DNA of 64,000 nucleotides from Escherichia coli. Its GTDB lineage: Bacteria > Pseudomonadota > Gammaproteobacteria > Enterobacterales > Enterobacteriaceae. Shown piece after piece: positions 13,095 to 24,505 of this stretch (position 1 is the first letter of the stretch; every line of letters starts with the position of its first letter). A program made the translations under genes and the position numbers. Under the pieces are notes generated by a model. It ran no database searches. It saw only the letters and a list, made by a program, of their open reading frames with translations, and was not told the DNA's origin. The DNA lies in assembly GCF_017348835.2 (NCBI RefSeq), contig NZ_CP071375.1. The stretch is one strand, 5' to 3'.

Positions 13095-13162
13095 CTCCCA
13101 CCTCATATTGAACCGCCCCGGAAATCCTGGAGACTAAACTCCCTGAGAAAGAGGTAAACAGG

Positions 13163-13489
13163 ATGACTAAAAATACTCGTTTTTCCCCCGAAGTCCGTCA
13201 GCGGGCGATTCGTATGGTTCTGGAAAGTCAGGATGAATATGACTCACAATGGGCGACAATTTGTTCCATTGCTCCAAAGATTGGCTGTACGCCGGAGACT
13301 CTGCGTGTCTGGGTTCGCCAGCATGAGCGGGATACCGGGGGCGGTGATGGCGGGCTCACCACCGCTGAACGTCAGCGTCTGAAAGAGCTGGAACGTGAAA
13401 ATCGTGAACTGCGCCGCAGTAACGATATCCTTCGCCAGGCTTCCGCTTATTTTGCGAAGGCGGAGTTCGACCGCCTCTGGAAAAAATGA
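13163..13489 (+). CDS. IS629-like transposase OrfA (helix-turn-helix / leucine-zipper part)
   Basis: 108 aa [26 protein letters not shown]...; recognised as IS3-family (IS629/IS1203 group) OrfA. Confidence 0.9.
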
Positions 13490-14376
13490 TGCCACTGCTG
13501 GATAAGCTGCGTGAGCAGTACGGGGTCGGACCGCTATGCAGCGAACTGCATATTGCCCCGTCAACGTATTACCATTGTCAGCAACAGCGACATCATCCGG
13601 ATAAACGCAGTGCCCGTGCGCAGCACGATGACTGGCTGAAGAAAGAGATACAGCGCGTATACGATGAAAATCACCAGGTATACGGTGTGCGTAAAGTCTG
13701 GCGTCAGTTGTTACGGGAAGGTATCAGAGTGGCCAGATGCACTGTGGCACGTCTCATGGCAGTTATGGGACTTGCCGGTGTTCTCCGGGGTAAAAAGGTC
13801 CGCACTACCGTCAGCCGGAAAGCCGTTGCCGCATGCGACCGCGTAAACCGTCAGTTCGTGGCAGAACGTCCAGACCAGTTGTGGGTGGCTGATTTTACCT
13901 GGGTAAGCACATGGCAGGGCTTCGTTTATGTGGCGTTCATCATTGATGTGTTCGCCGGATACATCGTGGGATGGCAGGTCTCATCATCCATGGAAACAAC
14001 ATTCGTGCTGGATGCACTGGAGCAGGCGTTGTGGGCCCGTCGGCCGTCCGGCACAATCCATCACAGTGATAAAGGTTCTCAGTATGTATCGCTGGCCTAC
14101 ACGCAGCGGCTTAAGGAAGCCGGATTACTGGCATCAACAGGGAGTACTGGCGACTCGTATGACAACGCGATGGCGGAGAGCATCAATGGTCTTTACAAAG
14201 CGGAGGTAATACACCGTAAGAGCTGGAAAAACCGGACAGAAGTGGAACTGGCCACACTCACGTGGGTGGACTGGTATAACAATCGACGATTGCTGGAAAG
14301 GCTGGGCCATACTCCCCCGGCAGAAGCAGAAAAAGCTTATTATGCTTCCATCGGAAACGATGATCTGGCAGCCTGA
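13486..14376 (+). CDS. IS629-like transposase OrfB (DDE catalytic part), in the -1 frame relative to OrfA
   Basis: 296 aa ORF with DDE-integrase features (HHSDKGSQY..., conserved acidic residues), overlapping orfA by 4 nt (ATGA). Confidence 0.9.
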
Positions 14377-14695
14377 GTTCACAGATAAAACACTCTCCAG
14401 GAAACCCGGGGCGGTTCATATTGTTAACAAAATTATTATCTCATTTAAATCTAAGTCATTTACAATATAAGTTTAAGAGCGACGCCACAGGATGAACTAT
14501 CAAAAATAGCTCATCATGATTAGCAAAACTTAACCATTTTAAAATAAATAAACAATTAAAGAAAAAAGATCACTTATTTATAGCAATAGATCGTCAAAGA
14601 CAGCTTTTTGTTACAGGTGGTTTGAATGAATGTAGCAATGAAATACAGAATTTCAGGCCATGTAACTCCCGGCAAAACCGGGAGGTACGTAATCT

Positions 14696-24399: not shown

Positions 24400-24505
24400 C
24401 ACGCCAGATGCGGCGTGAACGCCTTATTCGACCTACAAAACTATGCAAATTCAATACATTGCAGGAGTCGAATAGGCCTGACAGGCGTAGCACGTCAGAC
24501 GGTGT
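24400..24505. repeat. REP / BIME-like palindromic repeats between nadE and cho (boundaries approximate)
   Basis: Two oppositely oriented units resembling the REP consensus (GCCAGATGCGGCGTGAACGCCTTATTCGACCTACA and GTCGAATAGGCCTGACAGGCGTAGCACGTCAGACGG). Confidence 0.5.

Follow-up and report, generated by a model that had tools for sequence, protein, structure and literature searches.

The 64,000-nt stretch of Escherichia coli DNA analyzed in this study (hereafter the window) contains, at positions 13109-14418, a complete 1310-bp IS3-family insertion sequence of the IS629/IS1203/IS3411 type (Table 1). The element has the 5'-TG...CA-3' ends of the family, formed by 25-nt inverted repeats (TGAACC...GGTTCA), and is flanked on both sides by the 3-bp sequence TAT. 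It is located between tcyP/ydjO and cedA/katE. When the element and one TAT are deleted, the reconstructed empty site (201 nt) is 100% identical to the corresponding sequence in two E. coli genomes, and the empty site is found in 4267 of 5426 E. coli genomes; the existence of the exact empty site elsewhere indicates that the insertion in the window is recent and clean. The element lies in the leader of ydjO, 14 nt ahead of its annotated start (13094, minus strand). Pig strain PE164 carries the IS at the same locus, one substitution apart from the window copy.

Table 1. Features of the insertion sequence and its flanks, with one unrelated RNA match elsewhere in the window.
Feature	Position	Strand	Basis
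Left target-site duplication copy, TAT	13106..13108	.	Sequence; removal of the IS and one TAT restores a known empty site
IRL, starts TGAACCGCCCCGG	13109..13133	+	Repeat search: 25-nt arms, 88% complementary, 1260 nt apart
orfA, 108 aa, HTH DNA-binding domain and leucine zipper L76-L83-L90-F97	13163..13489	+	ORF; Pfam HTH_Tnp_1, E = 1.2e-12
Stretch permissive for orfA-orfB fusion by a -1 shift	13423..13486	+	-1-frame translation
ALIL (apical loop-internal loop) frameshift pseudoknot, Rfam RF01497	13444..13560	+	120.2 bits, gathering score 50
Main candidate slip site, U_UUU(G)	13450..13454	+	Conserved motif, SL1 spacing, NCBI fusion junctions
SL1, 5-bp stem GGCGG/CCGCC, 7-nt apical loop AGUUCGA (13464-13470)	13459..13475	+	-7.5 kcal/mol, spacer 5
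A6 run, last two Lys codons of orfA, secondary slip site at most	13481..13486	+	Candidate of the first-pass annotation
AUGAUG, orfA UGA (13487-89) overlapped by orfB starts at 13486 and 13489	13486..13491	+	Termination-reinitiation junction
orfB, 296 aa, DDE (rve) catalytic domain	13486..14376	+	ORF; Pfam rve, E = 4.3e-27, and HTH_21; NF033516
SL2, internal loop UCGGAC (13526-13531)	13521..13560	+	Rfam alignment
IRR, ends CCGGGGCGGTTCA	14394..14418	+	Same repeat search as IRL
Right target-site duplication copy, TAT	14419..14421	.	Flank sequence and empty-site comparison
ES036 (CssrF) sRNA, Rfam RF02751, unrelated to the IS	24437-24479	+	42.9 bits, gathering score 37.6

At the nucleotide level, the element shares 95-99% identity with thousands of copies in E. 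coli and Shigella, a level that most E. coli copies show over the full length, and is 98-99% identical to plasmid copies named 'IS3-like element IS1203 family' in RefSeq (98.3% over the 401 nt compared). Judged against these RefSeq-named copies, its identity of more than 95% and its length of 1310 bp place it in the same isoform group. IS3411, IS629 and IS1203 belong to the IS51 group of the IS3 family. IS1203 and IS3411 have been classified as isoforms of IS629 (PMC3271280). RefSeq labels the element 'IS3 family transposase, programmed frameshift', and RefSeq copies also bear an 'AL1L pseudoknot' feature.

The coding arrangement is that of an IS3-family transposase, with two consecutive ORFs of which orfB overlaps orfA in the -1 frame, an N-terminal HTH in OrfA, and HTH_21 and the C-terminal DDE (rve) catalytic domain in OrfB. 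The first-pass annotation had described the end of orfA as TGG AAA AAA TGA, with six A residues directly before the stop codon and the orfB ATG overlapping the stop in the -1 frame, and the bases bear this out: positions 13478-13491 read TGGAAAAAATGATG, orfA ends in Trp-Lys-Lys-stop (TGG 13478-80, AAA 13481-83, AAA 13484-86, TGA 13487-89), and the last two bases of the orfB ATG (13486-88) are the first two of the orfA TGA, followed by a second in-frame ATG at 13489-91. The -1 frame has its last stop codon, a TAA, at 13420-22; because it is open from 13423 onward, a -1 shift anywhere between 13423 and 13486 yields a 404-aa OrfAB fusion. The fusion scores 366 bits against the NF033516 'IS3 family transposase' model (cut-off 160). 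The first-pass annotation had proposed that a -1 slip on AAA AAA produces this fusion; the OrfAB product and the -1 frameshift are supported by the ORF frames, the domains and the RefSeq label, while the A6 run as the joining site is not.

A second homopolymer within the permissive stretch is the better candidate. The tetramer U_UUU at 13450-13453, located 33 nt upstream of the A-run, consists of the Phe97 codon UUU preceded by a U. Among the relatives (56 distinct sequences from 80 loci, with OrfB 51-97% identical), a slip motif is found at the Phe97 codon in all 56, as U_UUU in 34, U_UUC in seven and the heptamer U_UUU_UUC in 15, and in every one of them the -1 frame is open from the U motif to the orfA stop. 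The T's of the slip motif (T7-T9 of alignment A1) form invariant columns, and TATTTTG is invariant in 94 of 94 IS629-type copies from viral contigs. Heptads counted on the OrfA translation make F97 part of the final heptad of the leucine zipper, the position at which IS3-family shifts are stated to fall (bioRxiv 10.1101/2023.06.07.543989). In E. coli, U_UUC and U_UUU rank second and third among the tetramers most prone to shift when a pseudoknot is present, while A_AAA is the weakest of the six tetramers that respond to one, and tetramers without a stimulator barely exceed background (PMC4066793). Part of the conservation of the U-run could stem from the conserved A-Y/F-F residues of OrfA; however, the fixed SL1 spacing and the choice between UUU and UUC argue against these residues being the whole explanation.

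The U-run is accompanied by a structure of the kind expected of a stimulator. The RF01497 match is full length (model positions 1-117 of 117), and SL1 begins after a 5-nt spacer, in keeping with the family description, in which SL1 lies about 6 nt 3' of the slippery motif. SL1 is present in the centroid fold, and its helix is 96% paired across relatives. Bases 13465-13470 of its apical loop (GUUCGA) pair with the SL2 internal loop, 45 nt separating the two stem-loops in the window. Every relative has a partner 6-mer for this loop-loop pairing at an unchanged offset, and the pairing shows compensatory changes: over the 56 sequences the helix is 98.5% paired, and two of its pairs change on both sides (CG to UA in 14 sequences, GC to CG or AU in five). 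The structure as a whole is 91.3% paired over the 56 relatives, compared with 31-48% when the partners are slid. In contrast to single-sequence folding, in which the region 13490-13565 has a z of -1.37 and is indistinguishable from shuffles on that basis alone, the covariance model and covariation bring out the frameshift-structure signal, which emerges only with them. The ALIL structure has been reported to raise -1 frameshifting in vivo for IS3411 (PMC5009743).

Database proteins are joined at the U-run as well. The exact U-site fusion of the window copy is present in NCBI (WP_435367413.1 and WP_207184212.1), and among the 120 best database matches to a U-site fusion, 119 have a U-site-type junction, AYF[C/G]...[M/I/V]MPLL, in which C and G are two spellings of one join at TTTTG. 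Eight A-site fusions were built from the commonest variants, and none is present in NCBI. Against NF033516, the U-site fusion scores 366.4 bits and the A-site fusion 361.6 bits, a difference of 4.8 bits in favor of the former. These junctions are annotation conventions that follow a curated model and are no substitute for protein data. Some E. coli copies, represented by four entries, are annotated as 430- or 436-aa fusion transposases, and one of these entries has a 26-aa tandem duplication in the leucine-zipper region of OrfA.

Taken together, these results make it highly probable that a -1 shift at U_UUU in conjunction with the ALIL pseudoknot is the main route to OrfAB, with the A-run forming part of a stop/restart junction. 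We infer both the slip and its stimulation from the sequence, its conservation and the literature on IS3411. Normal decoding of the IS mRNA would yield OrfA, and a small fraction of ribosomes would slip by -1 at the Phe97 codon, where tRNA-Phe on UUU 13451-53 would re-pair with UUU 13450-52, making UGC 13453-55 the next codon. The slip would be caused by SL1, 5 nt downstream, blocking the mRNA entrance, and base pairs between the SL1 apical loop and the SL2 internal loop, in the ALIL pseudoknot, would reinforce SL1. The shifted ribosome would go on to produce the 404-aa OrfAB transposase. Unshifted ribosomes would melt SL1, cross the linker that contains the A-run and terminate at the orfA UGA, and some of them may restart at the overlapping AUGAUG to produce OrfB. 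This mechanism of -1 frameshifting has already been described for IS3411/IS629.

The overlap of the A-run, UGA and AUG is best read as a junction between orfA termination and orfB restart, which would give free OrfB. Of the 56 relatives, 44 have a start codon (ATG in 40) that overlaps the orfA stop, and the conserved form of the junction is UGAUG, matching the second ATG in the window. Mixta mediterraneensis carries at least 11 near-identical copies of a related element in one genome; in these copies the orfA stop is UAG, the junction reads AAAAAAUAGCCC, and the overlap offers no AUG for orfB, a GUG six codons on being the nearest candidate start. It follows that free OrfB made from such an overlapping AUG is not essential for an apparently proliferating element.

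The A-run itself has few of the attributes of a programmed site. Read in frame with orfA, the heptamer is G_AAA_AAA, which departs from the pattern X_XXY_YYZ, as the first-pass annotation had rightly cautioned in calling it non-canonical; the tetramer A_AAA alone fits. The sequence AAAAAATGA has seven occurrences across the 64-kb window, compared with 1.4 expected from shuffles, and being commoner than expected it constitutes no recoding signal by itself; the six further positions are 6179, 12725, 35168, 43330, 57670 and 58603. The A6 run is not conserved across the family: it is found in 12 of the 56 relatives, all belonging to one enterobacterial IS629-like clade, and is missing from the other 44, of which 24 are without any A before the orfA stop. 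A stem-loop or pseudoknot downstream had been put forward as a check on the A-run, and SL2 does exist there. It begins 35 nt downstream of the run, and its partner SL1, the 5' half of the structure, lies upstream. Because the A-run and the orfA stop are in the linker 3' of SL1, a ribosome located there has already unwound SL1, and the pseudoknot cannot act on it. When stimulators were defined as a hairpin or pseudoknot starting 4-10 nt downstream with at least 7.6 kcal/mol (PMC4066793), no adequate hairpin was found 4-10 nt 3' of the A-run, where the best local structure reaches -4.3 kcal/mol, compared with -7.5 kcal/mol for SL1. A predicted long-range helix of 13493-13503 with 13596-13612, starting 6 nt after the A-run, was considered and rejected because relatives show conservation at the coding level and no consistent pairing or covariation. 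The A-run could permit low-level, stop-adjacent 'shifty stop' -1 slippage, which would be weak and secondary at most.

The alternative that survives best is that the A-run is a real second programmed -1 site beside the U-run, giving a second 404-aa OrfAB isoform that modulates transposition; we regard this as possible but doubtful. Ribosomes that had not shifted at the U-run would stall on AAA while the A site holds UGA, a slowly decoded codon, and the peptidyl-tRNA-Lys would slip from AAA 13484-86 to AAA 13483-85, after which AUG 13486-88 would be read. In support of such a site, A_AAA is measurably prone to shift in E. coli even though it ranks last of six (PMC4066793), and slippage beside stop codons is established (Weiss et al. 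1987, cited in PMC5009743). Of the 14 distinct alignment A1 sequences that belong to the enterobacterial clade, 12 also keep the run, among them the multi-copy Mixta element with no junction AUG, but dual coding (KK in frame 0, EK in frame -1) could alone preserve the A's. In addition, GGAG (13462-65) lies 14 nt upstream of G_AAA_AAA, a spacing within the stimulatory range of SD-like stimulators of -1 shifting. Chen and Hu reportedly found in 2006 that IS629 has two functional signals for a -1 shift, TTTTG and AAAAT, giving rise to two OrfAB isoforms that both take part in transposition. Should that hold, the A-run would be more than an incidental feature, and the idea of a second site would have been put forward before. 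A further paper confirms one result of Chen and Hu, namely that OrfB lowers transposition (PMC5771124). Against the second site stand, besides the narrow distribution of the run and the lack of adequate structure 4-10 nt downstream or of a fold in 13490-13565 that differs from shuffles, the absence of the A-site junction from database proteins and polymorphism of the run among IS629-type copies: among approximately 95 copies from viral contigs, the region reads AAAAAG in nine and AAGAAA in one, and one has an indel.

The nine AAAAAG copies, all from IMG/VR loci, have AAAAAGUGA in place of AAAAAAUGA and thereby gain A_AAG in the orfA frame. A_AAG is the most shift-prone tetramer in E. coli (PMC4066793).

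A narrower form of the same idea, in which the A6-UGA junction is a second slip site specific to the enterobacterial IS629 lineage and placed inside the ALIL linker, is tentative and about as improbable. If it were true, one mRNA would give two OrfAB isoforms of equal length that differ in 11 residues at the zipper end and have different roles in transposition.

Far less likely is the original proposal that the A-run is the principal site joining orfA and orfB. The run does lie inside the permissive stretch and abuts the orfB ATG, and A runs are the commonest slip motifs of the IS3 family (PMC4066793). However, in addition to the non-canonical heptamer and the restriction of the run to one clade, the known stimulator straddles the run instead of following it, the annotated junctions are at the U-run, and the proposal leaves unexplained a family-wide U motif with canonical spacing and an open -1 frame. 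With the U motif in all 56 relatives and the A-run in 12, AAA AAA is probably not used as the joining site. Overall, the first-pass annotation is partly supported: it correctly identified a known mechanism and misplaced the slip site by 33 nt. Least credible of all is transcriptional slippage, in which stuttering of RNA polymerase on the A6 run or the T4 run would make the fusion: IS elements form the largest known group of genes with this mechanism, but productive bacterial runs comprise nine, occasionally eight, A or T (PMC1088944) as opposed to the six A and four T here, and slippage of this kind would leave a conserved pseudoknot at ribosomal spacing without a function.

Several relatives were set aside or departed from the common arrangement. 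A Serratia locus was considered as a natural in-frame fusion arising through loss of one T of the U-run and was rejected, its ORFs showing a decayed copy with further indels. A Martelella locus with a -1-frame TGA inside SL1 was considered as support for the A-run and was given no weight, its orfB being broken. Two alphaproteobacterial loci, L028 (Labrys miyagiensis) and L060 (Pseudorhodobacter antarcticus), share a related palindromic insert of approximately 40 nt at about 1133-1175. The insert forms a GGCG(C)ATGCAAGCAT(G)CGCC hairpin with a GCAA loop and separates SL1 from the conserved TATTTTGCCC slip motif, being located exactly between the two. As a result, orfB of L060 is in frame +1 relative to its orfA instead of -1. 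The insert may be either a small mobile palindrome or a variant form of the stimulator.

In Shigella and pathogenic E. coli, IS629-type elements are drivers of genome rearrangement. Since frameshift efficiency sets the rate of transposition, the placement of the slip site matters for engineering or mutating the element and for predicting the sequence of OrfAB, in which the 11 residues after Phe97 depend on the slip site chosen. For scanning based on sequence alone, the lesson is that the homopolymer nearest a stop/start overlap need not be the programmed site. Beyond correct annotation, the finding matters little.

Among known systems, IS3411, IS629 and IS1203 represent the same element, with a length of 1310 bp, 25-nt inverted repeats and an orfA/orfB pair, as well as the same ALIL match (RF01497, Mazauric et al. 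2008), a U-run 5 nt before SL1 and a 45-nt linker from SL1 to SL2; the differences are limited to point changes. IS6110 of Mycobacterium tuberculosis, also of the IS3 family, similarly uses a -1 shift at a U-rich motif 5' of a hairpin with the loop GAGCUCGA, followed by a pseudoknot, its slip motif UUUUAAAG lying directly 5' of the near-identical hairpin cggccgagctcgaccggcc (PMC5896891). It differs in that its heptamer is U_UUA_AAG rather than the tetramer U_UUU found here, and in lacking an A-run at the stop of orfA. In IS911 and IS3, too, frameshifting yields an OrfAB transposase in addition to OrfA and OrfB; the shift takes place where the leucine zipper ends, with an RNA stimulator on the 3' side. 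Whereas IS911 relies on A_AAA_AAG, an upstream SD and a three-way junction, and IS3 on A_AAG with an H-type pseudoknot, the element in the window has U_UUU and an ALIL pseudoknot. Finally, cdd of B. subtilis reportedly undergoes 'shifty stop' -1 slippage at CGA AAG near its stop codon, according to work attributed to Mejlhede et al. in 1999. If the A-run of the window element were used, the likeness to cdd would consist of P-site slippage beside a slowly decoded stop, near the start of the downstream gene.
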